DNA of 63,092 nucleotides, counting the filler, from Tortispora ganteri (lineage: Eukaryota): assembly GCA_003707115.1 (NCBI GenBank). It is 27 parts of 27 records of this genome, joined end to end, with 100 filler letters (N's around TTAATTAATTAA, not from the genome) between each part and the next. Parts side by side here need not be neighbours in the genome. Positions count along the whole stretch, not along the records: positions 25,782 to 28,118 come from PPNB01000132.1; 26 more parts are not named here. One strand, written 5' to 3'. The position numbers and the translations under genes were made by a program. Positions 13,303-44,403 of the stretch are shown one piece after another; the first letter of the stretch is position 1, and every line of letters begins with the position of its first letter. Under the pieces are notes generated by a model. The model was given only the letters and a program-made list of their open reading frames with translations, was not told the DNA's origin and ran no database searches.

Positions 13303-15721
13303 TAGTGTTACATCCGGCTCAGTTATTTCTACTGCTTCAAGTAATGCACTAAGTTCTAGTATTGGCTGGAGCTCATATGGTAATTCCAGCACTGGTCATA
13401 TTGTTTCTGAATCGAGTTTTGCTCATGGATCAAGCGCCTTTTCTGATTCTAGTGTTTTTCCCTCTTCATCGATTATAGGTTTGTCAAGCGTTCTATCTTC
13501 TGCATCAACTATAGGCAGCTCTAGTGGTTTGACGCCTTTGTCAAGTGCTGGAATATCAAGTGCCGTATCTCTTTCTTCGATGTTGCCTAACTCGAGTGCC
13601 GGTCAAAGTTTGTCACCTAGTCCCTCGAGTGGTTTGGCATCTTCTGCAATAATCAGCAACTCAAGTGTGGTGTCGACCTCTTTCATAAGCTTCTCGAGTG
13701 CTGTCGTGTCAACTTCTGCATTTGGTAATTCAAGCATGTTGCCAAGTGCTTCAGTTGCTAGCTCGAGCGTTCTTGCGTCTTCGACGATCATAAGCAATTC
13801 AAGTGTTGTGCCAGCTTCATCGGTATTAAGCAACTGGAGCATCTTACCGACTTCAGTCTACAGCAATTCAAGTGCTTTACCGGTTAGTTTGTCTGACGTC
13901 TCAAGCATTCTGTTTTCTTCATCGGTGTTTAGCAACTCGAGCGCCTTGCCATCATCGATCTACAACAACTCTAGTGTGTTATCAACATCGATTTTCAGCA
14001 ACTCAAGCGTCTTACCAACATCGATGTACAGCAACTCGAGTGCTTTGCCATTGTCGATTTACAGCAACTCAAGTGTGTTGCCATCGTCGATTTACCGCAA
14101 CTCAAGTGTGTTGCCATCATCGATCTACAGTAATTTGAGCGTCTTGCCGACATCGATCTACAGTAACTCGAGTGTTTTACCATCTTCGATCTACAGCAAC
14201 TCGAGCGTCTTACCATCATCGATTTATAGCAACTTGAGTGCTTTGCCAACATCGATCTACAGCAACTCTAGTGCCTTGCCATCGTCGATTTATAGCAACT
14301 CGAGTGTGTTGCCATCGTCGATTTACAGCAACTCAAGTGTGTTATCAACATCGATCTACAGCAACTCGAGTGCCTTACCATCGTCGATTTATAGCAACTT
14401 GAGTGTGTTGTCATCGTCGATTTACAGCAACTCAAGTGCTTTACCATCATCTACATACAGCAACTCGAGTGTCTTAACAACATCGATCTACAGCAACTCA
14501 AGTGCCTTGCCGACATCGATCTACAGCAACTCTAGTGCCTTGCCAACATCGATCTACAGCAACTCGAGTGCCTTGCCGACATCGATCTACAGCAACTCGA
14601 GCATCTTACCATCTTCGATCTACAGCAACTCTAGTGCCTTGCCAACATCGATCTACAGCAACTCAAGTGCCTTGCCGACATCGATCTACAGCAACTCGAG
14701 CATCTTACCATCTTCGATCTATAGTAACTCAAGTGCCTTACCATCTTCGATCTATAGTAATTCGAGTGCCTTGCCATCTTCGATCTACAGCAACTCAAGT
14801 GTCTTGCCATCTTCGATCTACAGCAACTCTAGTGTCTTATCAGCTTCGATCTACAGCAACTCTAGTGTCTTAACAACATCGATCTACAGCAACTCGAGCA
14901 TCTTACCATCTTCGATCTATAGTAACTCAAGTGCCTTACCATCTTCGATCTACAGCAACTCTAGTGTGTTATCAACATCGATTTACAGCAACTCGAGCAT
15001 CTTACCATCTTCGATCTACAGCAACTCGAGCGTCTTAACAACATCGATTTTCAGCAACTCGAGTGTCTTACCATCATCGATCTATAGCAACTCGAGTGTC
15101 TTAACAACATCGATCTACAGCAACTCGAGTGTCTTACCATCATCAATTTATAGCAACTCGAGTGTCTTACCAACATCGATCTACAGCAACTCGAGCGTCT
15201 TACCATCATCTACATACAGCAACTCGAGTGTCTTACCATCATCGATCTACAGCAACTCGAGTGTCTTACCAACATCGATCTACAGCAACTCGAGTGTCTT
15301 ACCATCATCTACATACAGCAACTTGAGTGCCTTACCAACATCGTCAGGCAACTCGAGGGCCTTGCCAACATCGATCTATAGCAACTCAAGTGCCTTGCCA
15401 ACTTCGTCAGGCAACTCGAGCGCCTTGCCAACATCGATCTATAGCAACTCGAGTGCCTTGCCGACATCGATATACAGCAACTCGAGCGCCTTGCCATCGT
15501 CGATCTATAGCAACTCGAGTGCCTTACCAACTTCGTCAGGCAACTCGAGCGCCTTGCCAACATCGATCTATAGCAACTCGAGTGTCTTACCAACTTCGTC
15601 AGGCAACTCGAGCGCCTTGCCAACATCGATCTATAGCAACTCGAGTGCCTTGCCGACATCGATATACAGCAACTCGAGCGCCTTGCCATCGTCGATCTAT
15701 AGCAACTCGAGTGTCTTACCA
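13303..15721 (+). CDS. Internal segment of a giant Ser-rich glycoprotein with 11-aa SIYSNSS(A/V)LP(S/T) repeats; continues the gene at 23319-25681
   Basis: Frame open across the whole contig; 33-bp tandem repeats, nearly all with an N-S-S sequon; the first ~62 nt are the reverse complement of 23319-23380. Confidence 0.8.
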
Positions 15722-15821
15722 NNNNNNNNNNNNNNNNNNNNNNNNNNNNNNNNNNNNNNNNNNNNTTAATTAATTAANNNNNNNNNNNNNNNNNNNNNNN
15801 NNNNNNNNNNNNNNNNNNNNN

Positions 15822-18015
15822 ATGGCTGAGATAAGCCGGATTGAACAAGTACTGTGCGGGTAGCATCAGTCATAGTTTGGATGGCCCGTTCAGCAGATCC
15901 ATTCTGTTGAGGAGTATAAGGGAGCGAAGTCTGAATTATACCACCTTCGATATTCACAAACTCACGTAGAGTGTGATTTACGATTTCAGTTCCGTTGTCG
16001 GAACGAATTATCTGAAGGGGCTGTCCGGTGAGAGCAATGCACGATTTTAACCAACCAACCAGTTTGTCAGAAAGGTTAGCCTTAGTCGAGGATGGAAATA
16101 CCGATGTAAAATGGGTATAATCATCTCGAATGAGAAGAAAATACCGTTCACCTCCACGTCCGATAGGAGTAATAGGACCACAAGTGTCAACATGGATAAT
16201 ACCAAGAGGTTTGGTCGCTCGATTTTCGGATGGAGTGAAGGAATGTCGAATTCGTTTGCCTTTAGAGCACGAATCACATTCAATATTGGTAACACGAGAA
16301 TCGATCTGATTGTGTTTAAGAGTTCGGTTAACCGCTTCTTTGTTGAAGTGGCCATAGCGAGCATGCCAGTCTTTGCTGGACGCATTGGCTATTACCGCAT
16401 AGGTACCTGGACCAATGGGTGAGCCGGGATTGCTTGATGTCGACAATTTCAGAATGGGAAGTTTTGACTCTGGGTCATAGCTCCCTCCAAATTTGAAACC
16501 ATTACGATAAGTTACTTTCCAAGAGTGTTTATCGAGGTAAACTCTGGCACCATCCTGAGTCAGTCTATTGGCTGAGAGGATGTTTATATTTCCTAATTCA
16601 GGGAATATGCGTACCTTAGAGAGTTTCAGTGTACGATTGCCTTCGAGCGAAAGCGTTGTCGAACCAATCAAGTCTGTGAATGTATTGTATCCTCCAAACT
16701 GCATATTAATGCCATTTGAGCGTTCTACTGTCTCAAAGCATTGTCCACCACTTACATGAGCAGATGCACCACTATCCAGAATCCACACAGTTCCTGTCGA
16801 AATTGATTCGGGTATGGAGAATGCATTTAGCGTGCTAAAGACAATGTGACAGATATCATTTTCAGATTCCACATTTGCAGGCTTTGATTTCTGTTTCGAT
16901 AGGGACTGTTCAAGGGCGTAACATTGTTGAGCAGAGTGTCCTCGTTTGGAGCAAAATTTGCAGATGGTTGGACCAGCAGTGTTACGATTTGAACGACCAC
17001 TTTTAGATCCTTTCTTCTTGGGTTTCTTAGAGATTCCGGGAGACGAATCAGTCTGATTTCCATGGAGTACAAGTGCCTTGGAGATAGTTGTATTTCCGTT
17101 GTTTTGATTGAATCTGGCACATTGAAAATATCTATCAGTGATTGATTGAATAGGAGGTGCAGGTTCATTTCTCCTGAACGCCTCTTCTACTTCTTCAGTC
17201 ATCTTCGTAACTATCCCTGACTCAGAGACATTTGTTGGCAGGATTTGCAACAAGTGGACTAAGACAGCGTAGTTGCAAATTGGCTTAATAATGTCGATTC
17301 TTTGAGCCATTTTGACAAATTTGTCCACTGCCTCTGTTACTCCATTCAAGGTTGGATTAGTGTTGTCAATCTTAAACAGCATGATTTGAGTCATTAAGTC
17401 ATCGGCAGCTTGGCCGCTTGCGGTATACGCATTCTTGTAGGCTCGTTTCATTATTTGACACAAAGTTGGAGCAGTGTGACCACGAACTGTGCCTAGTTGA
17501 TCGACATGTTCTGGGTTGCCAGATAATTGCCGTTCAATGAGACTTAGAGAGGCTGAAGTGACAATTCTAGCGAGAACTAATTTCGCTTCAGTGTGTTCAA
17601 CAAATTGCCAGTTTCTAGGAAGTCTTTGACCATCGAAGGAGATGATTGAATGTTCTTCCAAGTAAGGATCCTCGTTAATCCAACGCGAAAGTTTTAAATT
17701 GCCTTGGCTTGAGTCAGCGAGATTAAGTATTCTTGATAAGAGGTCAAGAACATCGCTATAGGTTTCAGCACTCAAAACAAATGGTTTCTCATTACTTAGA
17801 TAGGCATCTTTAAAGCTTTCCCTTAATGATCTAGTCAAATTTTTGGAATTGATTCTTTCAAGATTTGCTAACTCTTCGGAATTGCTAGATTGGTCAGAAG
17901 GATGTGAGGGTTCCGCAGGAACCTCAGAAGCTTCTAGAATACTAGAGTCATTGTTTGTTCCAGTTGGAACTTCACTCTGAATGTTGCGACGGCCACGTCC
18001 TCGAGTTTCTGACAT
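15822..18015 (-). CDS. Copia Gag-Pol polyprotein (Gag, Zn knuckle, protease, integrase), truncated
   Basis: CKFCSKRGHSAQQC knuckle, WILDSGASAH protease, WHARYGH...CDSC, IIHVD...IRSDNGTE...PQQNGSAER integrase core. Single uninterrupted ORF with PR-IN order. Confidence 0.95.
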
Positions 18016-18234
18016 TGATACTTTCGGCTTTTAACCTGTTGGAGAACTACCCGAATAGGGTAATGTAGCTTAGGGTTTTGAGCGCAATGAGAGAAACTAC
18101 GTGTAGATACGTGAAGTATTAGAAAGAGGTAAACCTTGATCAGTAATAAGATCTGGGCTAAAAACCTCTTGTCGTACAATATTCTTGATAATGTAACTGA
18201 CTTAACAATGCAGATGTATTGCACTGCAGGGAAG
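15822..18234 (-). mobile_element. Ty1/copia LTR retrotransposon, 5' portion (partial 5' LTR 18037-18234, PBS 18023-18036, gag-pol)
   Basis: LTR ends ...TCCAACA and is followed by GGTTAAAAGCCGAA, then ATG at 18015. The LTR resembles the solo LTR at 43693. Confidence 0.93.
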
Positions 18235-19077
18235 NNNNNNNNNNNNNNNNNNNNNNNNNNNNNNNNNNNNNNNNNNNNTTAATTAATTAANNNNNNNNNN
18301 NNNNNNNNNNNNNNNNNNNNNNNNNNNNNNNNNNTCGAATCAACGCTCTTTGTTATTTCTGGGTGGTCGGACTTATTTCTGTTTGTTCGGAGGTCTAAAT
18401 GTTTTTTTGAACGAAGAATATGGGCACAAATCGGGACCAATGCGGGTAAATTCAGACCACTTTGGCAACCATACAATACCAAAAACAGATCTATTTAAAA
18501 TGTTGCCTTTTATTGGCTTGTTTATTTGCGTTTTCTACGGGGTAGATGGTCGCTAAAGTGTTGGTAAAAGAAGGGAATGGTTGTGAGCAGAGATTACAGA
18601 TTGGGCCTGAAGAAAAAAAACTCTAAAAACTTAAATCCCATATCGGGTAATATATCGAAATAGTAAACTGCCTCCGATCATTGCGCATCGGCACGGATTC
18701 GTTGGAAAAAAAATTAGTGGAAAAAATGATAAAAAGAAAAGAGTGAAAAGAACGAAAAGAATGAAGAAAAAAAAAATCAACCATCTAACGAGCATCTGGC
18801 ATTGAAAAATTGCATGCTAACGTTCTTGCTGTTCGCAGAATATTGTACAGTAATATCGAATGACCGCCCGCAAGTCTGCAGGCTTATGGTGAGACAGCGT
18901 GCTTACAAAAGAGAACTCAAGTTGCGCTTGTGCTCTTTCCAGCCATTAAGCTAGAATTGCTTATAATAGATGTCGGGCGATACAAAGAGGTTGCTGAATA
19001 TCGAATAGATGCAACAACGTTTGAGTTCTAAGATGACGATGTTACCAAGATACTAGTATTCCTGTAGACCAAAATAT

Positions 19078-20745
19078 TTAGCTTGACAAGATACTGGAGT
19101 TCTTGTACACTGAGGATAAAGATGTTGGTAAGGAACTAAAATTGCTGAAAATGGATATCGGCGATACACTCGAGTTGCTAAAAATTGAAGTTGGTAAGAT
19201 GCTCGAGTTGCTGTAAAATGAGGTCGGCAAGACGCTCGAGTTGCTGTAAAATGAAGTCGGCAAGACGCTCGAGTTGCTGTAAATTGAAGTAGGCAAGGCA
19301 GTTGAGTTGCTATAGATTGAAGTAGGCAAGGCAGTTGAGTTGCTATAGATTGAAGTAGGCAAGGCGCTTGAGTTGCTGTAGATCGACGTTGGCAAGGCGC
19401 TTGAGTTGCTGTAGATCGACGTTGGCAAGGCGCTTGAGTTGCTGTAGATTGAAGTCGGCAAGCCGCTTGAGTTGCTGTAAAATGAGGTCGGCAAAACGCT
19501 CGAGTTGCTGTAAAATGAAGTAGGCAAGACACTCGAATTACTATAGATCGACGTTGGCAAGGCACTTGAATTGCTGTAGATCGACGTTGGCAAGACGCTT
19601 GAGTTGCTGTAAGCTGATGTTGGCAAGGCGCTTGAGTTGCTGTAAATCGATGTAGGTGAGGCGCTCGAGTTGCTGTAGATCGACGTTGGCAAGACGCTTG
19701 AATTGCTGTAAATCGACGTTGGCAAGGCACTCGAGTTGCTAAAAACTGAAGTAGGCAAGACGCTCGAGTTGCTTAACACCGTTGAAGAAGACAGAATGCT
19801 CGAGACGTCAGACGAAGAAACCGGTAAAGCACTTGAACTGTTATAGCTAGAAGTTGGTACAACGCTCGAGTTGCTTAACACCGATGAAGAAGATAGAATG
19901 GTCGAGACGTCAGACGAAGTAACCGGTAAAGCACTTGAATTGCTATAGCTAGAAGTTGGTACAACGCTCGAGTTGCTTGACACCGATGAAGAAGACAGAA
20001 TGCTCGAGACGTCAGACGAAGTAACCGGTAAAGCACTTGAATTGCTATAGCTAGAAGTTGGTACAACGCTCGAGTTGCTTAACACCGATGAAGAAGATAG
20101 AATGCTCGAGACGTCAGACGAAGTAACCGGTAAAGCACTTGAATTGCTATAGCTAGAAGTTGGTACAACGCTCGAGTTGCTTAACACCGATGAAGAAGAC
20201 AGAATGCTCGAGACGTCAGACGAAGTAACCGGCAAAGCACTTGAATTGCTGTAGATTGAAGTAGGCAAGGCACTTGAATTACTGTAGATTGAAGTAGGCA
20301 GGGCGCTTGAATTGCTGTAAATCGACGTTGGCAAGGCGCTCGAGTTGCTGTAAATCGACGTAGGCAAGGCACTTGAGTTGCTAAAAACTGAAGTAGGCAA
20401 GACGCTTGAGTTGCTGTAAATCGACGTTGGTAAGGCACTTGAGTTGCTATAGATTGAAGTCGGCAAGGCACTCGAGTTGCTGTAGATCGACGTTGGCAAG
20501 ACGCTTGAATTACTGTAAATCGACGTAGGCAAGGCACTTGAATTTCTGTAAATCGACGTAGGCAAGACGCTTGAGTTGCTAAAAACTGAAGTCGGCAAGA
20601 CGCTTGAGTTGCTGTAAATCGACGTTGGTAAGGCACTTGAGTTGCTATAGATTGAAGTCGGCAAGGCACTCGAGTTGCTGTAGATCGACGTTGGCAAGGC
20701 GCTTGAATTACTGTAAATCGACGTAGGCAAGGCACTTGAATTGCT
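19078..20745 (-). CDS. C-terminal segment of a SIYSNSS-repeat glycoprotein (possibly the same gene as 13303-15721)
   Basis: Same 33-bp repeat plus several longer ~40-aa units; ends ...VYKNSSILSS* with no GPI signal. Confidence 0.75.
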   Translation of the reverse strand, partial: SNSSALPTSIYSNSSALPTSIYSNSSALPTSIYSNSSALPTSIYSNSSVLPTSVFSNSSVLPTSIYRNSSALPTSIYSNSSVLPTSIYSNSSALPTSIYSNSSALPTSIYSNSSVLPTSVFSNSSALPTSIYSNSSALPTSIYSNSSALPTSIYSNSSALPTSIYSNSSALPVTSSDVSSILSSSSVLSNSSVVPTSSYSNSSALPVTSSDVSSILSSSSVLSNSSVVPTSSYSNSSALPVTSSDVSSILSSSSVSSNSSVVPTSSYSNSSALPVTSSDVSTILSSSSVLSNSSVVPTSSYNSSSALPVSSSDVSSILSSSTVLSNSSVLPTSVFSNSSALPTSIYSNSSVLPTSIYSNSSASPTSIYSNSSALPTSAYSNSSVLPTSIYSNSSALPTSIYSNSSVLPTSFYSNSSVLPTSFYSNSSGLPTSIYSNSSALPTSIYSNSSALPTSIYSNSSALPTSIYSNSTALPTSIYSNSTALPTSIYSNSSVLPTSFYSNSSVLPTSFYSNSSILPTSIFSNSSVSPISIFSNFSSLPTSLSSVYKNSSILSS

Positions 20746-20845: not shown

Positions 20846-21447
20846 ACCTTCGATCGGATCGATCGTCTCTGATTGGTCGATCTAAAACTTTAACCTTCGA
20901 TCGGATCGATCGTCTCTGATTGGTCGATCTAAAACTTTAACCTTCGATCGGATCGATCGTCTCTGATTGGTCGATTTAAAAGCTTAACCTTCGATCGGAT
21001 CGATTGTCTCTGATTGGTCGATCCAAAAGCTTAACCTTCGATCGGATCGATCGTCTCTGATTGGTCGATTTAAAAGCTTAACCTTCGATCGGATCGATTG
21101 TCTCTGATTGGTCGATCCAAAAGCTTAACCTTCGATCGAATCGATCGTCTCTGATTGGTCGATCCAAAAGCTTAACCTTCGATCGGATCGATCGCCTCTG
21201 ATTGGTCGATCCAAAAGCTTAACCTTCGATCGGATCGATCATTTTTTATTGCTCGATCCAAAAGCTTAACTTTCGATCGGATCGATTATCTCTTATTGGT
21301 CGATCCAAAAGCTTAACTTTCGATCGGATCGATTACCTCTGATTGGTCGATCTAAAAGCTTAACTTTCGATCGGATCGATTACCTCTGATTGGTCGATCT
21401 AAAAGCTTAACTTTCGATCGGATCGATTACCTCTGATTGGTCGATTT
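20846..21447. repeat. 47-bp tandem array (about 13 units)
   Basis: Unit ACCTTCGATCGGATCGATCGTCTCTGATTGGTCGATCTAAAACTTTA, starting at 20846, 20893, 20940 and so on. Confidence 0.97.
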
Positions 21448-23218
21448 ATACCAAACTTTAATTGGAAATTAAAGCTTCTTATTGGCTGCTTTGTTACCCT
21501 AACCTGATTTAGGAATTAGGCCTTCTGATTGGTCAATATTGTTTTAAACTCTAATTTTTTGAATAAACTGTGCAGCTAATTGATTGGCTAATATAAGGTT
21601 TATACTGCCTAATCGGGATATATTGCCTCGGCTCAAAACCTTAATCGCTAAAGATCGTCAACCATTATAGCAATATATCTCTGTAATACTGTATGGTTTC
21701 ACTGCGCACTGAAGATACAGTAGTTATAGCATAAAATTAATGTCTTCGGCTAAAGTATTCGCAATATTCCATTTGCCGTAGCCTGAAGATCTATAATATC
21801 TTCTGCTTTGTCTCACTGCATGCTCTCAACGTACAGTGCTAGGCACCCACTAGGCGAAAAGATGCGCTGCTTTAAAATGCTACAAACCCAAATAATAATG
21901 TGTTTCCAGCACTTTTATTGCCAAAATATTAACTGATCGGTGATACTAGTAGTTTGAAACTATGTTCACGTTCGTGCATGTCGTTTCGCCGGCATTGGAA
22001 CCGAATCAACAAAATCAACGATACATGCCCTCATGGTCGTCGGCAAGCAGTGCAGAAATTGGAATTGCATGTTCATTGCACGTTAAAATGCAACATCACA
22101 AAATAAACTTGATGCAAATAGTAGGAACATAAATGTTCACAGCTTCAATTGCTTTTCGACGGTATATACAACTGATTTGGACTTTATTACAATAATATCA
22201 AACTTATCTAAAACTGCCAAGGTTGGCAAGGGGAATTATAGGGCAGGCTATATATGTTCCTTCAACCTGCCACAGCAGTATATAACCATTAAAACTCCAC
22301 TAAATAATCGATTATTCTTCGACTATCTTTATCACAGTTTTAGGGCATGTTTATACAGCATTTGGCGCGTCTTGTGGCTTCTAATTAGCAGAATCGCGAG
22401 AATCGTGTGCAAATGGTGGAATGGCAAAAAACACCAAGGCTACACCCTTGGTAATTTTTCGGCTTTCGCGAAAATCTTGAATTTTCTAAAGTGGTCATTA
22501 TAGCGGTCCAAACGCCACCAAAACACTCAAATATCGTTCCCTTGTGCATATAATACCTTCAAGGAGTGTTTTCTGCAGCTGGTGACAGTTTACTGTGAAA
22601 ACCGTGAAAATCGTGAAAATCTCGAAAATCGCAAAAAACACCAAGGCTATAGCCTTGGTAAATTTTCAGATTTCACGAAAATCTTGATTTTTTAGAGATT
22701 GCTCTTAAAGCCTCTAAAACGTCAGTAAATACTCAAATAACCGATCATTATGCTTAGAATATCTTCAGAGCCTCTTCTAGGCCTTTCACGCGGCTCATGA
22801 TAGTTCGCCAACAAAATTGAGCAAATCGCAGTACTCGTAAAAACCACCAAAGCCACCTGCTTCTACTTTGAGAAACACGCTATCTATCGATATGCCAGAT
22901 CATTATCTGCTATTTTGTCTCTGACTTAGTATTGGCTGTCTTGCCTTAAACTCAGATACCTTCACTTCGGCTTCCATACTTTACTTTTGGTAGTCTTACT
23001 TTACTTTCGGTGGTCTCAGTTTCTCTTTGTGTGGTTTCTGGTCCTTAGCTTGGTACCTAAGCTGCTTGAGTGCATCTGTGACTATCTTGCAGCAAATCGT
23101 TGTTCGTCAAGCTGTTGCAAAGCAAGCATTAGATCTTCGAGACAACCAGTTTGATTAGGCTCTATTCTGGCGTATCAAGAGTATACCTACGTTCTTGTGT
23201 GTCAGCTAAATTGCGATT
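21448..23218. repeat. Dispersed multi-copy block flanking the array (shared with 40060-40850, 53260-54050 and 62031-63092 in opposite orientation)
   Basis: Colinear reverse-complement similarity read by eye; contains only broken reading frames and ~205-bp direct repeats. Confidence 0.9.
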
Positions 23219-23318: not shown

Positions 23319-25681
23319 CAATACTAGAACTTAGTGCATTACTTGAAGCAGTAGAAATAACTGAGCCGGATGTAACACTAGAACTTGCAGTCAAACTCGA
23401 AGATCCGGGGCCTACTGATGAGCCTGGTACAACACTAGAGCCGGGTACAGCCGAAGATCCTGATATAACACTAGAGCTGGATGCAGCTGAAGATCCTGAA
23501 GCAGCCGAAAATCCTGAAGCAGCTGAAGATCCTGAAGCAGCTGAAGATCCCGAAGCAGCTGAAGATCCTGAAGCAGCTGAAGATCCCGAAGCAGCTGAAG
23601 ATCCTGAAGCAGCTGAAGATCCTGAAGCAGCCGAAGATCCTGACGCAGCCGAAGATCCTGATAAAACACTAGAGCCGGGTGCAGCTGAAGATCCTGACGC
23701 AGCCGAAGATCCTGATACAACACCAGAGCTGGGTGCAGCCGAAGATCCTGATAAAACACTAGAGCTGGGTACAGCTGAAGATCCTGATACAACACTGGAG
23801 CTGGGTGCAGCTGAGGATCCTGACGCAGCCGAAGATCCTGATAAAACACGAGAGCCGGGTGCAGCCGAAGATCCTGATACAGTCGAAGATCCTGATAAAA
23901 CACTAGAGCTGGGTGCAGCCGAAGATCCTGATAAAACACTAGAGCTGGGTACAGCTGAGGATCCTGACGCAGCTGAAGATCCTGATACAACACTGGAGCT
24001 GGGTGCAGCTGAGGATCCTGACGCAGCCGAAGATCCTGATACAACACTGGAGCTGGGTGCAGCTGAGGATCCTGACGCAGCCGAAGATCCTGATAAAACA
24101 CTAGAGCCGGGTACAGCCGAAGATCCTGACGCAGCTGAAGATCCTGATACAACACTAGATCTGGGTGCAGCTGAGGATCCTGACGCAACTGAGGAGCTAG
24201 AGGCTGCTGAGGATCCGGCTGCTGCACTTGAGGCAGAAGAAAGTTGACTAGTGCTAGAATTTCCATATGAGCTCCGTCCAAAACTGGATTTCAGTGCAGT
24301 GCTAGAGGCAGATGCAATTGCTGGAGAAGATAATGTGGTTGGAACGGAAGTCACGCTAGAGCTTGAGGCGAGACTCGAGCTCGGTGCGGTAGAAAAACTG
24401 GGAGAAGCTGAAGATCCCGAGCCGATGCTAGAGTCGGAAGCTGCAGACGACTCGAAAGCAATAGAGGATCTAGATGCAATTGAGCTAGCAGCACCTAAAG
24501 AACTGGAAACAATAGTAGATCCTGAGGCACCTGAGCTAGGTGCAGTTGAAGAGCTAGAAACAACAGATGATCCTGAGGCAACTGAGCTAGGTGCAGTTGA
24601 AGAGCTAGAAACAACAGATGATCCTGAGGCAACTGAGCTAGGTGCAATTGAAGAACTGGAAACAGCAGATGATCCTGAGGCTATTGGGCTAGGTGCAATT
24701 GAAGAGCTAAAAACAACTGATGATCCCGAGGCTATTGGGCTAGGTGCAATTGAAGAGCTAAAAACAACTGATGATCCCGAGGCAACTGAGCTGGGTGCAA
24801 TTGAAGAGCTAAAAACACCAGATGAACCTGAGGCAACTGAGCTAGGTGCAATTGAAGAGCTAGAAACAACAGAAGACTCCGGAAAAACACTAGATTCCGA
24901 TATAATCGATAGGGCTGAACTAACTGAAGGAATAGGATTAACCGGCTCAGGTGATCCACTTGTAGAAGCAGACACAGATATGGATATTGTCTCGCCACTA
25001 GTAGTAGTGAACACAATACTCACGGTCACGGAAACCCCAGCTTGACGCTTGAATTGACCCGCCGATCCAAAGCCCGCAACAGGAATGACTATACGGATTG
25101 GGTACAAGAACCCACCGGCAAAGTCGACCGGAAAACTTGCCTTGAACCCATTCGAACTGTCCAGAGGGGCAGTGGCAGAAGAGCCAGAAGAACCAATAAG
25201 ATCCATGTTATCGCACCGCATAGCCAATTCGCCATCAAAGAGGTATGCGTAAGTATCTGCAAAGTTACTAGGATCCTGTCCCTGTACATCTACAAACGCA
25301 ACGTCGGCTGATGGTTCAAGGTAGAAAAGGTACTCGACATAGCCCTGTTCGGATACTGATGCCGATATAGAGTTTGACGAGACTGTAGCGGCCACATTGT
25401 CTCGTTGGTAGTTCCTGTACTCACCGTTCTGGATATCGCTCGACGACAAGTCTACTGCGCTCTCGTATATAGCGGCAAATACTTTGCCTGCGCTGTAAGC
25501 AGCAGTAGTTGAGCATGCGTCTGCAGGCACAGTCGTGGGAGCTGTCGTTGGAACAGTTACTGTAGCTGTAGTGGGTGGCGTAGCGGGGTGAGTAGGCGGA
25601 GGCGTAGGTGCTATAGTCTCCGTGATAATGACTGGAATCTCAATAGAGACGTGCACGTCAACCGACACGGACATGGACACG
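23319..25681 (-). CDS. Family member: PA14/GLEYA-like domain 1 followed by SGSS repeats (both ends truncated; continues into 13303)
   Basis: Domain nearly identical to domain 1 of 5948-7967 (NGEYRNYQRDNV, AMRCDNM, YPIRIVIPVAGFG..GQFKRQ). Confidence 0.8.
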
Positions 25682-25781: not shown

Positions 25782-27759
25782 TAAGCCTAGCAGCTTCTTT
25801 CTTTTGCGCTTTTTCTGCTTCAACCTTAACTTTTTCTTCGCGTTGTTTAACAAGTTCAGCAATCTCTTCTTCTGAAAGGAATTTGATCAATGCAGCTGCG
25901 TCTTTTCTGTCGTCCAAACTAACGCCTATTTTTGGCAATGTAATGTCTCGCATTTCGTCGCATAATTTAAGAATATCTTTAGTGGAACCGTTGTTCATAG
26001 CAATATTGCGTATATTGTCGCGGAACGAAGATAGTGCCTTCACATAAGGTAGAACAACTTCTTCCTTATTATTAAGGCCAACCTCGCCCGAACTAGTCGT
26101 AGGCCAGCCTATGCGATCGTCATTTGAATTGAGCCCAAATATGTCAAGCATACGCGTGATATATCTAGCAATTTCTGTAACCGCTGAAAGACCAGGTTTG
26201 GTGGAGGATTTGAGGTATACGTTGACATTCTGAATTAGCTCGAGCAAGACTGTGATAGCAGAAGGAGTAGACAGGTTGTCGCACAGAGCATCATGTACTG
26301 CCACACGTGCTTCATCAAGTTTCTTAAACAGTTCTAGCTCGTCATTTTCCACCCTTGTAGGGCTATCAGCCTTATCGGCGCGCTCGCGTAGTAGCGCGTG
26401 TACATTTGTGAAGAACTTAGTAAAAGTAGAGTCGACAGCGCGCACTTCGGAGAGCAGGCTTTCCTTGAAGTCCAGCGGTTTGTTCCATTGTTGCATTATA
26501 AAGACAAGTCTTATTTGACGAGCAGAGTACTTCTTGAGACCGTCTTTAATGGTGATGAAGTTCTTAAGACTCTTACTCATTTTCTGACCTTCTATGTGTA
26601 GATGACCAGTGTGCAAAAAATAGTTGATCCATTGAGGACAATCGAAACAGGCTTCAGACTGGGCGAGTTCGTTATCATGATGTGGAAACGCAAGATCTAT
26701 ACCGCCTGAATGAATATCTATATTGGGTCCAAGTATTTTAGAGGCCATAGCCGAGCACTCTATGTGCCAGCCAGGACGACCTTTACCCCAGGGAGAGTTC
26801 CAAAAGGGCTCGCCCGGTTTGGAACTTTTCCATAGCGCAAAGTCATTAGGATGGCGTTTTGGTCCTTTAGCGGAAAGACTTCCTTCACCTTCTTCTATAA
26901 GCGCCTGTTGGCCTTTACTCTCCGGTTGGAGCTTGACGTATGTGTGGCCTTCAGCTTCATCAAAAGCAACGGTGTCAAAATACACTGTTCCGTCGACCTC
27001 ATAACCGTAGCCCTTTTTGACAATCTCCTCAACAAAGGTAACAATCTCAGGCATGTACTCTGAGACTCGAGTGACTGCCGATGGCGGAAGTACATTGAGT
27101 GCGGCCATATCCTTATTGAAGTCGTTCTCCCAGTAGGCGGCGAGTTTTCTGAAAATCGAAGAATCTGTGATTGTTGCGCCCTGTGTCTTGTCAAGATAGA
27201 GGACAAGGACGTCATGTGCGAGTTCGTAAAACTTATCCTTGTCAGTGTCTGAGAGCTCTAAGGCGCGTTTTGCGTCGTACAGAGCAGCCCGGTGGACCTT
27301 TTCAGAGACAGGGGTATTTGTTGAAACAGGTTCAATAGTTTCCAGAACGGCACCTGGTAGTTTACAATCTGCATATACGGGCCAGGCTTTCTGTAAAGTA
27401 ATTTTTGCATCAGCTACAGAAGTGGATGAAGAGAATTGTTCAAAAAGGTGGTTTTGTCTTGCACGAACGATAATTTTATCGTCGACGTCTGTCACATTCT
27501 GTACAAATTCGATATCGTAGCCAAAATAGTCACGCAAAACGCGTCTTGAAATATCAGTAGAAACGTAATTGCGCGCGTGGCCCATATGTGCTGCATCATA
27601 GACAGTAGGTCCGCAGCAGTACCATGTTATCTTGTTAGACTTGGTTACAAACGGAACTTTTGATTTTGTCAGCGAGTTATATACATTGATACCTTTAGCA
27701 GTACCTTCAGGTTTGATCCAGGACATTTTAGAAAAAAGGCGGATAAAGCCTAGACGCAT
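25782..27759 (-). CDS. CRS1: Cysteinyl-tRNA synthetase, copy/allele B (3' truncated)
   Basis: Near-identical to 2747-4724, with the same contig start. Amino-acid differences seen: GVV/GAV, STS/STN, WDS/WNS; the other SNPs noticed are synonymous. Confidence 0.95.
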
Positions 27760-27895
27760 ACAAAAAAGTTCCTACAAAGAGTCACTGTCGTTTAGAAGAA
27801 AATTGAGTATTTTGACAATACCCAAAGTAGGGTTGTGCCAATTTAAACTAATGATGTGAAATGTTGGCATAGCAACTACATCTCCCAGTTCCTTT

Positions 27896-28118
27896 GAGGA
27901 TCAATGGGTGAACGCTTGAATCACCAGTACTATATAGGGGATTACTGTGCAGGACTCCTCCCTTAGCAACGTAAATTGTTTTGCTCATAATTCCTTCAGA
28001 AGTGGCTGAAATTTAATGAAAATAAGTGTGTTTTAATTGAAATTGCTAGATCTTTCGAATGGTAGTATTTTGGAGGCTAAATTCGGCGATTTGGGGGGAA
28101 AAGTCACCCACCGCGAGG
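27896..28118 (+). mobile_element. Terminus of unclassified insertion element (GAGGATCAATGGGTG...), site 1, in the CRS1-NPA3 promoter
   Basis: Matches the empty allele up to ...CAGTTCCTTT (4860), then switches to sequence shared with 52207 and 60807. Confidence 0.88.
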
Positions 28119-33057: not shown

Positions 33058-34572
33058 ATTCCTGTTGCGGGCTTTGGATCGGCGGGTCAATTCAAGCGTC
33101 AGTCTGGAGTCTTTGTGACCGTGAGTGTGATGTTCACTAGCATCAGTGGCGAGACAATAGCTATTTCAGTATATGGTTCTGCAAGTGGATCACCTGAGCC
33201 AGTTGAGCCTAGTTCTAGTCTGAGTTCTAGTTTGAGTTCTAGCTTTAGTTCTAGTTTGAGTTCTAGTTCTAGTTTGAGTTCTAGTTCTAGTTTGAGTTCT
33301 AGTTTGAGTTCTAGTTTGAGTTCTAGTTTGAGCTCTAGTTTGAGTTCTAGTTCTAGTTTGAGTTCTAGTTTGAGTTCTAGTTTGAGTTCTAGTTCTAGTT
33401 TGAGTTCTAGTTTGAGTTCTAGTTTGAGTTCTAGTTTGAGTTCTAGTTCTAGTTCTAGTTCTAGTTCTAGTTCTAGTTCTAGTTCTAGTTTGAGTTCTAG
33501 TTCTAGTTTGAGTTCTAGTTTGAGTTCTAGTTTGAGTTCTAGTTCTAGTTCTAGTTCTAGTTCTAGTTTGAGTTCTAGTTCTAGTTTGAGTTCTAGTTTG
33601 AGTTCTAGTTTGAGTTCTAGTTTGAGCTCTAGTTTGAGTTCTAGTTCTAGTTTGAGTTCTAGTTTGAGTTCTAGTTCTAGTTCTAGTTCTAGTTCTAGTT
33701 CTAGTTCTAGTTCTAGTTCTAGTTCTAGTTCTAGTTCTAGTTCTAGTTCTAGTTCTAGTTTGAGTTCTAGTTTGAGTTCTAGTTTGAGTTCTAGTTTGAG
33801 CTCTAGTTTGAGTTCTAGTTCTAGTTTGAGTTCTAGTTTGAGTTCTAGTTCTAGTTTGAGTTCTAGTTCTAGTTTGAGTTCTAGTTTGAGTTCTAGTTTG
33901 AGTTCTAGTTTGAGCTCTAGTTTGAGTTCTAGTTCTAGTTTGAGTTCTAGTTTGAGTTCTAGTTCTAGTTCTAGTTCTAGTTCTAGTTCTAGTTCTAGTT
34001 CTAGTTTGAGCTCTAGTTTGAGTTCTAGTTTGAGTTCCAGTCCCAGTTCGAGCGTATCCAGCTCAGCTCAGTGGAGTTCTAGCGCCTCGAGTAGCAGCAG
34101 CTGTGGAGTAGTGTCAAACGCTTGCCTGTGCGCACCGTCGCAAACGCTGCTGGCGCGAGAGTGGGCGGTGGATCTTACACAGTACAATGGAACGGAGGTA
34201 GCCGATGGGAAGTACCGGGTGGGGAATTCCAGAGAGGTTATGGTGAGAATTTCTGGGCCTTATATAAATATCCGCTACAATAATCCGAATGAAGTGACAG
34301 AGGTGCTGGTATATGTTCAGGGACCGAACCGGATAATCTATGTCTTGGGGCTCCCTAACTACTTGGCGTATATGTTTGTTGGGGAAAGTGGGATGAAGTG
34401 CGGGGACATAGAGGCAATCGGAAGTGGTGGATGGAATCTCGTGCACCCATTGAACTCAGGGTCCGTTTGGTTTATTGATCAGCCATTGTCGGAGGGGTGG
34501 ACGCCGATGCGATTTGTGTTCTACAGTGGATCCCAGGGCGGGATTGACATTTATTTCAACTCTAATGTCTAG
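33058..34572 (+). CDS. Subfamily A copy 2 (5' truncated)
   Basis: End of domain 1 (GQFKRQ), long (AGTTCT)n stalk and variable domain 2; the 3' flank is homologous to 5419-5947. Confidence 0.78.
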   Translation: MPVAGFGSAGQFKRQSGVFVTVSVMFTSISGETIAISVYGSASGSPEPVEPSSSLSSSLSSSFSSSLSSSSSLSSSSSLSSSLSSSLSSSLSSSLSSSSSLSSSLSSSLSSSSSLSSSLSSSLSSSLSSSSSSSSSSSSSSSSSLSSSSSLSSSLSSSLSSSSSSSSSSSLSSSSSLSSSLSSSLSSSLSSSLSSSSSLSSSLSSSSSSSSSSSSSSSSSSSSSSSSSSSSSSSLSSSLSSSLSSSLSSSLSSSSSLSSSLSSSSSLSSSSSLSSSLSSSLSSSLSSSLSSSSSLSSSLSSSSSSSSSSSSSSSSSLSSSLSSSLSSSPSSSVSSSAQWSSSASSSSSCGVVSNACLCAPSQTLLAREWAVDLTQYNGTEVADGKYRVGNSREVMVRISGPYINIRYNNPNEVTEVLVYVQGPNRIIYVLGLPNYLAYMFVGESGMKCGDIEAIGSGGWNLVHPLNSGSVWFIDQPLSEGWTPMRFVFYSGSQGGIDIYFNSNV

Positions 34573-34749
34573 TTTATATTTGTAGTTATAAATTGATCGT
34601 TTCAAGGAGTGTGGGGACGAGAGTAGAGAGAGAGAAAAAAAATTGAAGGGGAAAGGAGACTAATCTCGGCGATAGCGGAGATTAGATGAGTAAGATAGAG
34701 TTTAAGGAATTTCCTGATTGGGACAGTCCGAAATGGGAATAATCATAAG

Positions 34750-34822
34750 CACGTGACTCCCCAAAAGGGAAATAAGCACTAGTCACGTGACGCCCCGAAA
34801 TGCAAATTCAATATATATAAAA
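34750..34822 (+). promoter_or_regulatory. Paired E-boxes (GCACGTGAC, GTCACGTGAC) and TATA box
   Basis: CACGTG sites at about 34751 and 34784, TATATAAAA at about 34814. Equivalent motifs lie at 5750-5790 (one E-box) and 37660-37735. GTCACGTGA is the known Cbf1-type site. Confidence 0.5.
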
Positions 34823-35366
34823 CCCCCGCCACCCTTACTTAGATATCGAGTCCATGATAGCGCTAAACAATAACATGGATGGATTCATCTCGTCTGTGTC
34901 TCTTGACTATCAAGTGACAAATTTTAGCCATCTTGGGGCATTTGACATGGAAACCTCTTGATGTCGCTATTATTAAAACAAGGCGCAGCGCTGGAGCTAT
35001 AAAAGTACAGGAATGACAACAAAATCACGTCAACTTATAACCTTAGCGAAATTCGAAAAGCTCGTTTCGGGTGCTACTGAATCACTATAAAATATTGATG
35101 TTTATCGTCATATAAAGCTTTACAATGAATTAACGTCGTTTAGTGGTCTTGAAGGTAGTAATAAACCGAATAAGCATAGTAGCCATGCACAGTTTTTGAG
35201 GCTCTATAGTCATGCATGGTTTTTATGCAATTCGGATATTTACCCTTTTGTGGAAACAACGGCCGANNNNNNNNNNNNNNNNNNNNNNNNNNNNNNNNNN
35301 NNNNNNNNNNTTAATTAATTAANNNNNNNNNNNNNNNNNNNNNNNNNNNNNNNNNNNNNNNNNNNN

Positions 35367-35700
35367 AGACTTTAAGCGATTTCAAGTTTCCGAGATTCGA
35401 CGGTAATGTTTTGATGCGATTAAAACTGATATCAAGAATTTGAAGCTTTAACTCACAAAGAACTGGCGGAAAATTTGAGAATTTGTTACCTCTTAAGTCG
35501 AGACGTGAGAGCGGCAATGTAGACAGAAATTGGGGCAAGCGTTCAAGCAGGTTTCCTTGTAATTCTAGACGCGTTATTTGCGGTATTTGTGCAAGTTCTA
35601 CAGGCAGATCTTTTAAATCAAGACCCGAAAGACGCATTTCTGAAAGTTTATATCGTTTTTGCAATTCAGAAAGCGTTAAACGCTCATCATTTTGCGTCAT
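35367..35700 (-). CDS. Leucine-rich-repeat protein N-terminus (Sog2-like), truncated
   Basis: Tandem LxxLxLxxNxL/F..LP repeats (LELQGNLLERLP, LDLRGNKFSNFP, LDISFNRIKTLP). Confidence 0.75.
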
Positions 35701-35789
35701 TGTTATCGGAAGTGATGATTTTCTTTAAACCGCCCCCACCCGTTTAGGTGTTACTACCTCTATTTCTCTACCTACCACTACAATCCATA

Positions 35790-37552
35790 ATGTCGACTGT
35801 TATCGAGATTAATTCAGATGACGATTATTCGACGTCTACAAGTATTGATATTATTGAAATTAATGATTCTTCCGTTGAGAAGGCAGAACCGTTGACTAGT
35901 AAACAATCAAAACTGCCGATCATTGATAGCTCGCATTTCTATGGGCCCTATAAACGTCGCTTCAGTTTCAGTGCCAGCGAAAATATTAGTATAGACGATT
36001 TGGAGAACTCTTCTTTTAAATTGCGTCGTTCAATTACAGATCGCAACTCTATAGTGCCAAACACGCCTTCTTCTTCGCGATCAAACCAATCAACACCATT
36101 ACAAAGAACCACAAGTTCTCCGCTACCCTCTACAACTCAAAAATCACGTCCATTTCTTGAAGATTCACTATCCAGTCTATTCTCTTCACCTTCGTCTGTA
36201 GAAAATGATAGGTTCACACACAACGCGATACGCTCTTTCCCTGATTTGACTACCGCGCCGCCTATCATGGACTATAGGTCTCTGTCAGTACGCACACCAC
36301 CATCCAAAAAAATTGATTCAATGGTTGATCAGCTTCTCAGGGAAGCACATAAATCTGCTAAAAAGAAAGCAAAAGTAGCAAAATTGGCTTCTAAATCAAC
36401 TGAACCCTCTGTTCGTCCAACACGTTCTTCTGTTGATCTCAACAAAATCAGTTCAACGCCTACTCGTAATGGCAAGAAATCTATTGTATCAGCAAACTCT
36501 TCTCTTAATGCATGTCAAATGCCTCAAATTCAAAACATATCGATGGCTCAGCCTGCAGAACCCAATACCGCTCCTATCGCTCCGCGGATCATCAAAAAGT
36601 CAAAAACCAAAGATTCTTCTTCTACTGATCGAGAATATACTGCACGTATGTCTGAACTCAATAAAGCTAACCCTACAAAGAAAGATTTTGCCAAAGAGAT
36701 GATTGTAGAGTTTGAAGCATCGTTTCAAAACTCAGAATTGTTTCGCAACTTGTCAGAGATTCTCACACCGCTCGGCGCCGAAGTCAGAATCGGTTCCTGG
36801 ACACAACCCACTTCCTGTATAAAATGGTTCAGAGCTTTTGAAGGGGAATATAACCCTGATAAGGACCTTTATGTTCCCGGTCCAAAGAAAATCATCCAAG
36901 AGCCGCTCATCTTGCGCATAATTTCTGGCGAAGACTTCATCGATCTAGTGAAATCCAACCAGATCGCTGCTTACCTTCGCAAGTTTTCAGAAGAATTTAA
37001 AGGCTATACAATTACAATTCTGACAGTCGCGTTGAATAAAGCATGCAGAGCTGAACGCGCAGCTGTAGAGCGTGCTATCAGGAACCAGGTTAACAGAACA
37101 ATTAATGGCAACACCTCTACAGACACTCTTAGCACTCAAGTGCACTTCGATGAACGGTCGATCACAGATAGCATAATTGAAAGTATTATCAGTTATGATA
37201 CACATTTCATACAAGTCAATAATCAGGACGAAGCTGCCGAAACTCTCTCGAGTTTCACGCAAGACATAGGGTACTTGCGTTACGTCAGAAATTTAACAGA
37301 TCTAAAAGCAGATTTTGAAAGCTCTTCTTTGCAGATCCGATCTGCTCAAACAAGCGAAGAAAGTTTGTCGACTATGCTAAAAGAAATTCGCCGTATGACT
37401 CCGAATATTGCAGCTTCTTTATCGGAATCTTTCTCGCATTCTGTGATTTCTTTGCATTCTGAATGCATTAAAAAAGGTGCAGATTTATTGACAAACATGA
37501 TGGGACCAAATGATAGAAGGATTGGCACTAGCCTGTCAGCGTCTGTCCACAA
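35790..37552 (+). CDS. EME1: Crossover junction endonuclease subunit Eme1/Mms4 (3' truncated)
   Basis: Disordered Ser-rich N-terminus, then KEMIV, IKW.R....YN...D.YVP.P..I..E..IL..I..EDF.DLV, ML.EI.RMT..IA and RRIG.SLS, typical of the Eme1 ERCC4/HhH region. ATG at 35790. Confidence 0.75.
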
Positions 37553-37899
37553 NNNNNNNNNNNNNNNNNNNNNNNNNNNNNNNNNNNNNNNNNNNNTTAA
37601 TTAATTAANNNNNNNNNNNNNNNNNNNNNNNNNNNNNNNNNNNNNNNNNNNNGCGGGGGTTTTATATATACTGTATTACCATTTCGGGACATCACGTGAC
37701 TTGTGCTTACTTCCCTTTCGGGAAGTCACGTGCTTGTGTATATTCCCGTCTTGTTTTGTCCCAATCGGGAAATTTCTTAAACTCTATCTTGCCCATCTAA
37801 TCTCCGCTATCGCCGAGATTAGTCTCCATTCCCCTTCAATTCTCTCTACTCCCGTCCCCGCACTCCTTGAAACAATCAATTTATAACTACAAATATAAA

Positions 37900-39795
37900 C
37901 TAGAGAGGAAACTCGAAATGAATGTCAATCAAGCTCCGGGATCCACTGTAGAACACAAATCGCAATGGCGTCCACCCCTCCGACAATAACTCATTAATAC
38001 GCCACTCGGATAGTGCACCGTGAGGGCGCACCACTTTCCATCCACCGCTTCCGATTGCCTCTATGTCCCCGCATCTCATCCCGCTTTCCCCAGCAAACAT
38101 ATACCCCCAGTAGAAGGAACGGTACTTCACATAGACATAGCTAATCACGTTCGGTCCTTGAACATATACCAGCACCTCTGCCCCTGCATTCGGATTATTG
38201 TAGGCGATATGTACACTAGCCGTACTAAAACCGACGATAACCTCTCTGGAATTCCCCACCCGGTACTTCCCATCGGCTACCTCCGTTTCATTGTACTGCC
38301 AAAGATCCACCGCCCACCTTCTTGCCAGCAGCCTCTGTGAAGGTTCGCACTTGCAAGCGTTTGACACCACTCCACAGCTGCTGCTACTCGAGGCGCTAGA
38401 GCTCCACTGAGCTGAGCTGGATACGCTCGAACTGACACTCGAACTGGGACTTGAACTTGAACTCAAACTAGAACTCAAACTAGAACTAGAACTAGAACTC
38501 AAACTAGAACTCAAACTAGAGCTCAAACTAGAGCTCAAACTAGAACTCAAACTAGAACTAGAACTAGAACTCAAACTAGAACTCAGACTAGAACTGGAAC
38601 TCAAACTCGAACTCAGACTAGAACTGGAAATCAAACTAGACCTAGACCTAGAACTCAAACTCAAACTAGGACTAGAACTCAAACTAGAACTCAAACTAGA
38701 ACTCAAACTAGAACTCAAACTCAAACTAGGACTAGAACTAGAACTCAAACTAGGACTAGAACTAGAACTCAAACTAGAACTAGGATCAACTGGCTCAGGT
38801 GATCCACTTGCAGAACCATATACCGAAATAGTTATTGTCTCGCCACTGATGCTAGTGAACATCACACTCACCGTCACAAAGACTCCAGACTGACGCTTGA
38901 ATTGACCCGCCGATCCAAAGCCCGCAACAGGAATCACTATACGGATTGGGAACAAATATCCACCGTCAAAGTCCACCGGAAAACTTGCTTTGAACCCATT
39001 CGAACTGTCCAGAGTGGCAGTCCCAGAAGTCCCAGAAGTACCAATAAGCTCCATGTTATCGCACCGCATGGCCATTTCACCCTCGTACACGTACGCATAA
39101 GTATCTGCAAAGTTACTAGCATCCTTTGCCTGTATATCTACAAACCCAACGTCGCCTGATGGTTCAACGTAAAACAAGTACTCAAAATAGCCCTGTTCCG
39201 ATACTGATGCCAATATAGAGTTTGACGAAACTCTCCCAGTCACATTGTCTCGTTGGTAGTTCCTGTACTCACCGTTCTGGATATCGCTCGACAACAAGTC
39301 TACCGCACCCTCGAATATAGCGGCAAATACTTCACCTGCCCTGTAGGCAGGTCTGGTTGAGCATGCGTCTGCAGGCACTGTCGTGTGGGCTGTCGTTGGA
39401 ACAGTTACTGTAGCTGTGGTGGGTGGCGTAGCGGGGTGCGTAGGCGGACGCGGAGGTACTATAGTCTCCGTGATAATAACTGGAATCTCAATAGAAACGT
39501 GCTCGTCAACCGACACCGACATGGACACGGACTCGTAGTATGACCAGACGTAGGTGCAGTCGTCTTTGACGAGCGGCGGACTAGGTACATAGGTCACCGT
39601 AGCGGGTGTGCACTGGTTGCAGTACCAGCCTGAAACTGTAGACACATGAGGCGCGCATTGATCATCGTAGACGATCGCACGTGTAGCACCAGACTCAGAA
39701 GTGTACAACCGCCCATAGACAGTGGAAGTTTCAATAGGTGGGCTGCAAATGAGCGTGTTCGTTTCTACAATAGTACTGTATATTGTCTGCACCAT
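37900..39795 (-). CDS. Subfamily A copy 3 (apparently complete ORF)
   Basis: ATG at 39795 (MVQTIYSTIVETNTLICSPP) preceded by an in-frame TGA; two PA14/GLEYA-like domains separated by a Ser stalk. Confidence 0.8.
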   Translation of the reverse strand: MVQTIYSTIVETNTLICSPPIETSTVYGRLYTSESGATRAIVYDDQCAPHVSTVSGWYCNQCTPATVTYVPSPPLVKDDCTYVWSYYESVSMSVSVDEHVSIEIPVIITETIVPPRPPTHPATPPTTATVTVPTTAHTTVPADACSTRPAYRAGEVFAAIFEGAVDLLSSDIQNGEYRNYQRDNVTGRVSSNSILASVSEQGYFEYLFYVEPSGDVGFVDIQAKDASNFADTYAYVYEGEMAMRCDNMELIGTSGTSGTATLDSSNGFKASFPVDFDGGYLFPIRIVIPVAGFGSAGQFKRQSGVFVTVSVMFTSISGETITISVYGSASGSPEPVDPSSSLSSSSSPSLSSSSSPSLSLSSSLSSSLSSSLSSSPSLSLSSRSRSSLISSSSLSSSLSSSSSLSSSLSSSSSSSLSSSLSSSLSSSLSSSLSSSSSSSLSSSLSSSSSPSSSVSSSVSSSAQWSSSASSSSSCGVVSNACKCEPSQRLLARRWAVDLWQYNETEVADGKYRVGNSREVIVGFSTASVHIAYNNPNAGAEVLVYVQGPNVISYVYVKYRSFYWGYMFAGESGMRCGDIEAIGSGGWKVVRPHGALSEWRINELLSEGWTPLRFVFYSGSRSLIDIHFEFPL

Positions 39796-40850
39796 CGCGA
39801 GCAACTGGCGTCAAAAATCTGCGCCTCGCCCTTATTANNNNNNNNNNNNNNNNNNNNNNNNNNNNNNNNNNNNNNNNNNNNTTAATTAATTAANNNNNNN
39901 NNNNNNNNNNNNNNNNNNNNNNNNNNNNNNNNNNNNNAAAAGTAATTCTCCGTGTAAATCGCTCTATCCGAGATGCATTACGGTTTCTTACAGCACCTCA
40001 CTGATTTCTATGACAGCCGTACCACAAAGTCGATGCCCAGGAGGTCTAGTCTGGTATTCATTCCCCTTGCCAACAACCATGGCACTTTTGGATAAGTTTG
40101 ATATTCTTGTAATACTGTCCAAAACAGTCGTGAATACCGTCGAAAAGCAATCGAAGCTGTGAGTATTTATGTTCCTACTATTTGAATAAAGCTTATTTTG
40201 TGATGTTGCACGTTAACCTGCAATGAAGATGCAATTCTAATTTCTGCACTGCTTGCCGATCCTGAAGGCATACATCGTTGATTTTGTTGATTCGGTTCCA
40301 ATGCCGGCGAAACGGCATTCACCAACGTGAAAATAGTTTCAAACTACTAGTATCACTGATCGGTTTTATTTGGTGGCAATAAAATTACTTGAAACACATT
40401 ATTATTTGTGTTTATAGCACTTTAAAGCTGCGCATCTTTTCGCCTACTGAGCACCTAGCACTTTACGTTGAGAGCATGCAGTGAGACAAAGCAGAAGATA
40501 TTATAGATCTTCAGGCTACGCCAAATGGAGTATTGCGAATACTTTAGCCGAAGACATTAATTTTATGCTATAACTACTGTATCTTCAGTGCGCAGTGAAA
40601 CCATACAGTATTACAGAGATATATTGCTATAATGGTTGACGATCGTTAGCGATTAAGGTTTTGAGCCGAGGCAATATATCCCGATTAGGCAGTATAAACC
40701 TTATATTAGCCAATCAATTAGCTGCACAGTTTATTCAAAAAATTAGAGTTTGAAACAATATGGACCAATCAGAAGGCCTAATTCTATATCCAGGTTAGGG
40801 TAACGAATCAGCCAATAAGAAGCTTTCTTTCACAATTAAGGTTTGGTTTG

Positions 40851-44173: not shown

Positions 44174-44403
44174 ATACCTCAAACTCTATGCAGTCTATTT
44201 TACCAGCCTCAAAAGTCTGCACATGGGATTTTTACAGAATAACTTTAATTACCTACCTGGAAGTTGTTCTGGGTAATCTTGGTCAATAATTGGCTTTAGC
44301 GTTNNNNNNNNNNNNNNNNNNNNNNNNNNNNNNNNNNNNNNNNNNNNTTAATTAATTAANNNNNNNNNNNNNNNNNNNNNNNNNNNNNNNNNNNNNNNNN
44401 NNN

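Follow-up and report, generated by a model that had tools for sequence, protein, structure and literature searches.

A sharp terminus interrupts a divergent promoter in T. ganteri

What kind of sequence begins abruptly at position 27896, within the promoter shared by CRS1 and its divergent neighbor in Tortispora ganteri, and does it still move? The window analyzed (63,092 nucleotides) is a string of 27 short, unplaced contigs separated by spacers, leftovers of a heterozygous assembly, and adjacent pieces are therefore not genomic neighbors. In an exact-match search of the window, GAGGATCARTGGGTG was found at 27896, 52207, and 60807 with 0 mismatches, against a chance expectation of 0.10 matches, and three matches were reached in 0 of 100 shuffles. 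As the preliminary description had proposed, the same terminus stands at three positions with unrelated flanks, the similarity beginning sharply at the G. The left ends lie on the plus strand at 27896-28118 (site 1, cut by the contig end), 52207-53037 (site 2, a distinct subtype including the promoter region and the start of the transposase gene), and 60807-61113 (site 3, cut by the contig end). Genome-wide, the left end was matched exactly six times, in five young copies (contigs C637, C649, C653, C907, and C953) and in an isolated 23-bp piece in contig C1. Matches to the end motif with one to three mismatches, other than those in C335 and C1, did not extend into further similarity in the cases inspected, and their number was at the level of the reversed-pattern control. 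The C1 piece (G000, C1:10,385-10,407, minus strand; L015) is a perfect, intergenic left end of the site-2 type that stands alone, neither a duplication nor further element sequence lying beside it, and is possibly an excision or deletion scar.

The contig segment at 25782-27895 is 99.0% identical to 2747-4860; the former enters the element, whereas the latter continues into the next gene without it, which bears out the empty site previously placed at 4860/4861 in the CRS1-NPA3 promoter. The identity of CRS1 (cysteinyl-tRNA synthetase; filled haplotype at 25782-27759, minus strand, ATG 137 bp from the left end) was confirmed by homology, the protein being 92% identical to that of Tortispora caseinolytica and about 53% identical to all else, which by itself marks the host as a Tortispora-like yeast. 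The 5' part of the divergent gene occupies 4907-5318 (plus strand), with its ATG 46 bp from site 1; the name NPA3 given to it earlier is putative, and its start fits a GPN-loop GTPase. The distances of 137, 335, 531, and 46 bp reported earlier were all correct.

Five young copies carry perfect 9-bp target duplications

The right ends were found by searching the genome with the 3' part of an older copy in contig C335. The right terminus, ...AATGCACTG, ends five contigs and had five exact matches in the genome; that of the site-2 copy (10716-11103, plus strand) comprises the last 74 transposase codons and the terminus. At five of five young sites, the nine bases before the left end recur after one right end (AGTTCCTTT, GCATTGGTG, CAAAAAAAA, GGTGAGCAT, and CGCACTTCA), so that each perfect 9-bp target duplication pairs one left end with one right end. 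At site 1, the predicted duplication AGTTCCTTT was found exactly, with its left copy at 27887-27895 (plus strand) and its right copy after the right end in G000:C775 (L044). Both copies of GCATTGGTG at site 2 are in the window (52198-52206 and 11104-11112, plus strand), and CAAAAAAAA at site 3 has its left copy at 60798-60806 (plus strand) and its right copy in G000:C794 (L042). For all five young sites, a separate contig holds an empty allele in which the 9-mer is present as a single copy; at site 1 it lies at 4852-4860 (plus strand) in the 182-bp divergent promoter, and at site 3 the empty allele differs by one A in the run. The coexistence of filled and empty alleles noted before is thus real at every young site.

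The sequence subtypes of the left and right ends agree with the pairing based on duplications (site 1 with site 4, site 3 with site 5, and site 2 apart). The ends of the site-1 and site-4 copies are 99.5-99.7% identical. Among all young copies, the left ends differ by 0.5-9%, indicating that the copies did not arise in one burst. The flanks of filled and empty alleles differ by 0-1.8%. In read-derived contigs, depth at site 1 was 55 for the filled junction, 33 for the empty junction, 83 for the locus, and 189 for the element, the last corresponding to about 4-5 haploid copies; the junction contigs hold 29-30 letters per side, compared with a 31-letter bridging rule. Two public read runs gave identical figures and hence represent a single data set, which may be the source of the assembly itself. 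The best explanation is a heterozygous diploid strain with five hemizygous young copies and one older copy. As another sign of a heterozygous diploid, 42231-44303 and 46604-48697 form an allelic contig pair with 98.5% identity in opposite orientation. Elsewhere in the window, long tandem-repeat ORF fragments with 12-207-bp units (5419-9734, 13303-20745, 23319-25681, 33058-39837, and 44404-46503) resemble adhesins or mucins in appearance only.

The element encodes a MULE-type transposase

The young copy was read as 4,477 bp along one path through overlapping contigs, which may mix copies in a collapsed graph; no contig spans any young copy end to end, and the intact ORF rests on this path. A predicted spliced ORF of 1,265 amino acids ends 162 bp before the right end, and this single long ORF occupies all of the element except 465 bp and 162 bp. 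In the long contigs, the interior variants keep open frames, and their identity is 99.2-99.7%. From the sequence, we predict an exon 1 (MDEKLLEESLYNAISS; 52670-52719, plus strand) followed by a 52-nt intron with the pattern GT...CTAAC...AG (52720-52771, plus strand), the removal of which brings exon 1 into frame with the long ORF.

The encoded protein contains VVIDST at 663, HIDKD at 732, CAWH at 755, and MGIEGHW at 909, which make up a D-D-E signature with CxxH, together with a CxxC...CxxC motif, a SWIM finger, and an N-terminal region that is acidic. Its match to the Pfam MULE profile (27.0 bits, E 6e-6) falls slightly short of the cut-off of 27.6, which 18 of 21 relatives passed; a weak SWIM match was obtained in 2 of the 21 relatives and a weak FAR1 match in one. 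All 27 aligned sequences have both D residues, the E, and the SWIM C/C/C/H (CxC...CxH) without exception. In the AlphaFold model (pLDDT 84.6), the only PDB fold match below E 0.001 was the Mutator-family transposase of ISCth4, an IS256 member (E 2e-4, with a low TM of 0.27-0.36). A predicted beta-rich C/C/H/H region resembles, by eye, the WRKY-GCM1 DNA-binding domains of transposases (PMC1702500). The earlier suggestion of a Mutator-like element was right, and the alternative of an unclassified or new class is not supported, since the transposase is a DDE enzyme of the MULE type belonging to a clade widespread in fungi. The 9-bp duplication and the MULE transposase likewise rule out the LTR, Tc1/mariner, PIF, piggyBac, and Helitron readings.

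A full HMMER scan returned 852 related proteins at E 0.001 or better, compared with one from a word-indexed protein search; the named relatives among the 852 come from Basidiomycota and Penicillium. The closest is a split copy in T. caseinolytica (ODV90746/ODV90747, 82-88% identical), followed by proteins of Tilletia, Penicillium, Steccherinum, Mycena, Flagelloscypha, and Cryptococcus (26-32%). In long alignments, the transposase is 21-33% identical to anything outside Tortispora. By sequence likeness, the closest sequences appear to form a pan-fungal MULE/SWIM transposase clade with the motif TTMIVESHW. A separate, single intact ORF of 723 amino acids (L201) in G000:C846 (L063:1306-3339, minus strand) is 21% identical to the transposase core; it keeps the C/C/H/H DNA-binding pattern, is without the first D, CxxH, E, and SWIM, and had no Pfam match, which makes it a candidate for a domesticated MULE-derived DNA-binding protein.

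The two ends are unlike, and many related elements keep inverted repeats

The preliminary description had predicted an inverted right end, ...TGATCCTC, which is absent at all five sites, where the right end reads ...AATGCACTG instead. In the four young copies tested, 2 of the 10 terminal bases agree between the element ends, as do 3-6 of the first 30, and the best local alignment of left and right ends was at shuffle level (p 0.25-0.76). The inverted-end score of the element was 21, compared with a shuffle maximum of 28. In the copies at sites 3 and 5, left 18-30 and right 17-29 agree in 12 of 13 bases, a post hoc finding with p < 0.001, so that "highly degenerate TIR" is as fair a term as "no TIR"; the corresponding subterminal match gave p 0.16-0.57 in the copies at sites 1, 2, and 4 and in the old copy. 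The old copy's ends read GAG...CTC, with 14 of 30 bases matching. Short motifs recur at both ends, namely TCAC in all five young copies (left 26-29, right 25-28) and CCCT(T)AGCAAC in young copies (left 65-75, right 34-43), and a GGTGA-N9-TCACC palindrome was read by eye in most left ends. Differences between copies cluster within the outermost 45 bp at each end, the reverse of the pattern expected for a bound TIR.

The older full-length copy (G000:C335:147,859-152,340, minus strand; 4,482 bp on a 314-kb contig) has a left end with one mismatch. Its ORF halts at 1,139 amino acids at a stop about 126 codons early, and its tail is decayed. Between the young and old copies, dS was 0.123 and dN 0.042 (dN/dS 0.34) over 1,134 codons. 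At this one older copy (1/1), no target duplication was recognizable, and none of 15 matches was a second contig with its right flank. The old copy thus combines 1,139 open codons at about 7% DNA divergence with several stops in the last 130 or so codons; a truncated active sublineage and an early domestication are candidate readings. Orthology with the T. caseinolytica copy was considered and rejected: RSM18, the neighbor of the old copy, corresponds to ODV90600, about 146 accessions from the transposase pieces ODV90746/7 on one scaffold, so the sites are probably different, assuming that accession order follows gene order.

A decayed sister element at 61314-63010 (plus strand) has 48-bp inverted ends with 40 of 48 bases matching. 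It encloses a degenerate transposase promoter and the first ~160 codons, with the start at a similar distance from the left end; no target duplication was seen around 61314-63010. In two contigs, the decayed sister adjoins a noncoding repeat family (20846-23218, 39938-42097, 53138-55150, and 61214-63092) made of 47- and 67-bp tandem arrays with ACCCTAACC motifs, which is possibly subtelomeric or centromeric.

Among 79 metagenome loci of relatives (from a 13-sequence alignment), the 40 with the longest flanks were tested for inverted ends, and 39 were usable. Inverted ends scored above the shuffle maximum of 28 at 15 of 39 loci and were clear (34-144 bp, score at least 42) at 12 of 39, two of which are the same element; the flanks in the shuffles were shorter than those of some loci, and a locus with no match may be incomplete. 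Duplications accompanied the relatives' inverted ends at four of eight loci, one in a microsatellite and two at large offsets that may be due to chance. CACGTG lies within 60 bp of the repeat start in 10 of 14 of the relatives' inverted ends (L122, L124-L129, L146, L156, L160, and L189), often near position 28-31, and the tips are often mismatched. Because many fungal relatives and the decayed sister keep inverted ends, TIR loss looks derived in this element, a reading that comes from comparison.

Insertion sites lie near start codons

The distances from the left and right ends to the nearest predicted start codons were 137 and 46 bp at site 1, 335 and 1,058 bp at site 2, 531 and 346 bp at site 3, 11 or 170 bp and none within 1.5 kb at site 4, 175 and 138 bp at site 5, and 104 and 45 bp at the old copy. 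All six sites are noncoding and less than 350 bp from a start codon; a gene points away at the left end in six of six, and five of six are divergent promoters. The control was an ORF-based 200-kb sample, of which 72% is coding and 12% divergent intergenic DNA. With a coding fraction of 0.72, the probability of six of six noncoding sites is about 5e-4. Given intergenic placement, the probability of at least five divergent sites is 0.04-0.05 for six sites, which is marginal, and 0.09-0.10 for the five young sites; that of six of six within 350 bp of an ATG is 0.005-0.008, with the 350-bp limit chosen post hoc. The promoter preference claimed earlier is thus supported on six sites only, and its divergent-promoter excess among intergenic DNA is marginal. 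These results suggest that promoter targeting is likely, although part of the pattern could stem from selective loss of insertions into coding sequence.

Comparison with known MULEs

DNA transposons are described as very rare in budding yeasts (PMC4316626), and the transposition of autonomous MULEs without TIRs as unusual and unresolved (PMC6446971). VANDAL elements, the non-TIR MULEs of Arabidopsis (e.g., VANDAL21/Hiun), are autonomous, with absent or short degenerate TIRs, a 9-bp duplication, and SWIM (PMC6446971), and VANDAL21 inserts into promoters and 5'UTRs of active genes (PMC8616336). The present element shares autonomy, absent or degenerate TIRs, the 9-bp duplication, and SWIM with them, a likeness in working rather than in clade membership; unlike the plant VANDALs with their extra ORFs (vanB and the anti-silencing vanC), it has one ORF, and the relatives found are fungal. 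Curupira of Platyhelminthes has one ORF, SWIM, a 9-bp duplication, and no TIR (PMC6446971), and by description resembles the element in all four respects, differing in its flatworm host.

Two budding-yeast MULEs were also compared by description. Mutyl of Yarrowia lipolytica has a 9-10-bp duplication, similar to that found here, and is variably present among strains (PMC5014426, PMC9865632); in contrast to its 7,413 bp, imperfect 22-bp TIRs, and two ORFs including mutB, the present element is without TIRs and a second ORF. Phantom-Ca of Candida albicans is similar in size and ORF number (4,390 bp, one ORF, 9-10-bp duplication; PMC6446971) but has 34-bp TIRs and is listed without a zinc finger, whereas the element has a SWIM finger and no TIRs, the latter setting it apart from all the TIR-bearing MULEs Mu, Hop, Mutyl, and Phantom-Ca. 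MuDRF (Repbase, Basidiomycota), a distant fungal MuDR branch defined by a GCM domain (PMC3164196), likewise has one protein and a 9-bp duplication; a Pfam scan gave no GCM match in this protein or in 22 others. TIR-less MULEs are thus already known in plants and a flatworm and TIR-bearing ones in two yeasts, and the element is not a new class. Title and abstract searches of the literature outside subscription journals and Repbase found neither a TIR-less MULE in a yeast nor a Tortispora transposon.

Does the element still move?

Taken together, the element is very probably an autonomous MULE DNA transposon of ~4,480 bp that lost its TIRs and is still transposing with fixed, precise ends, 5'-GAGGAT...GCACTG-3'. 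The perfect duplications fit the recent activity proposed at the outset, and present-day mobility we only infer. By analogy with the family, the transposase, with its predicted WRKY/GCM1-like zinc DNA-binding region and RNase H-like core, would excise the element and join it to the target through a 9-bp staggered cut. More tentatively, it might recognize the short subterminal motifs (TCAC and CCCT(T)AGCAAC) at both ends, cut at a set distance from them, and, like Mutator and VANDAL21, favor open chromatin at promoters. A fuller version, which we put forward tentatively, is a currently active, single-gene, TIR-less yeast Mutator element that lost its TIRs independently of the plant VANDALs, whose ends are set by subterminal motifs with left and right versions exchanged or coevolving, and which actively targets divergent promoters.

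Against this stands the possibility, which we consider rather unlikely, that the same element no longer moves, its hemizygous copies having entered on a single parental haplotype when diverged lineages crossed, and its promoter pattern reflecting the selective loss of coding insertions and not targeting. The 0-1.8% difference between filled and empty flanks and the 0.5-9% differences among left ends would fit such a history, but all five duplications are perfect, the interiors are 99.2-99.7% identical with open frames, the site-1 and site-4 ends are 99.5-99.7% identical, and the sites lie nearer start codons than intergenic DNA does in general (p 0.005-0.008, post hoc limit). Bacterial IS256 relatives are reported to move via a circular or copy-out intermediate, and if only one end needed full recognition, TIRs would be dispensable. 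This route is improbable here: the asymmetric ends and ISCth4 as the closest solved fold point toward it, but among the five exact right-end and six exact left-end matches in the assembly, no joined right-end/left-end junction was found, and eukaryotic MULEs are described as cut-and-paste (PMC6446971).

The remaining explanations carry very little weight. A mobile-element class unrelated to known superfamilies, suggested by the missing TIR and by the 21-33% identity outside Tortispora, is already largely refuted and very improbable in view of the 9-bp duplication, the D-D-E residues with CxxH, SWIM, the Pfam MULE matches in relatives, the Mutator-family fold, and related fungal elements with ordinary TIRs. 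Chimeric contigs at a repeat might be expected in a window that is a pile of short unplaced contigs, but five independent sites have matched duplications and empty alleles, and separately built read contigs show both site-1 alleles, making an assembly artifact extremely improbable.

A TIR-less MULE with one ORF and known ends thus very probably exists in a budding yeast. Compared with the multigene TIR-less MULEs of plants, it offers, at 4.5 kb, a compact model for TIR-less movement. Five filled/empty pairs in one diploid, together with a TIR-bearing sister and relatives, make end recognition, TIR loss, and promoter targeting testable in yeast, and the hemizygous insertion 46 bp and 137 bp before two housekeeping genes is a natural test of allele-specific expression. 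If the element is indeed active, with independent TIR loss and targeting, it would offer the smallest tractable system in which to study a DDE transposase that pairs unlike ends, and active targeting of divergent promoters may make it a promoter-tagging tool for yeasts.
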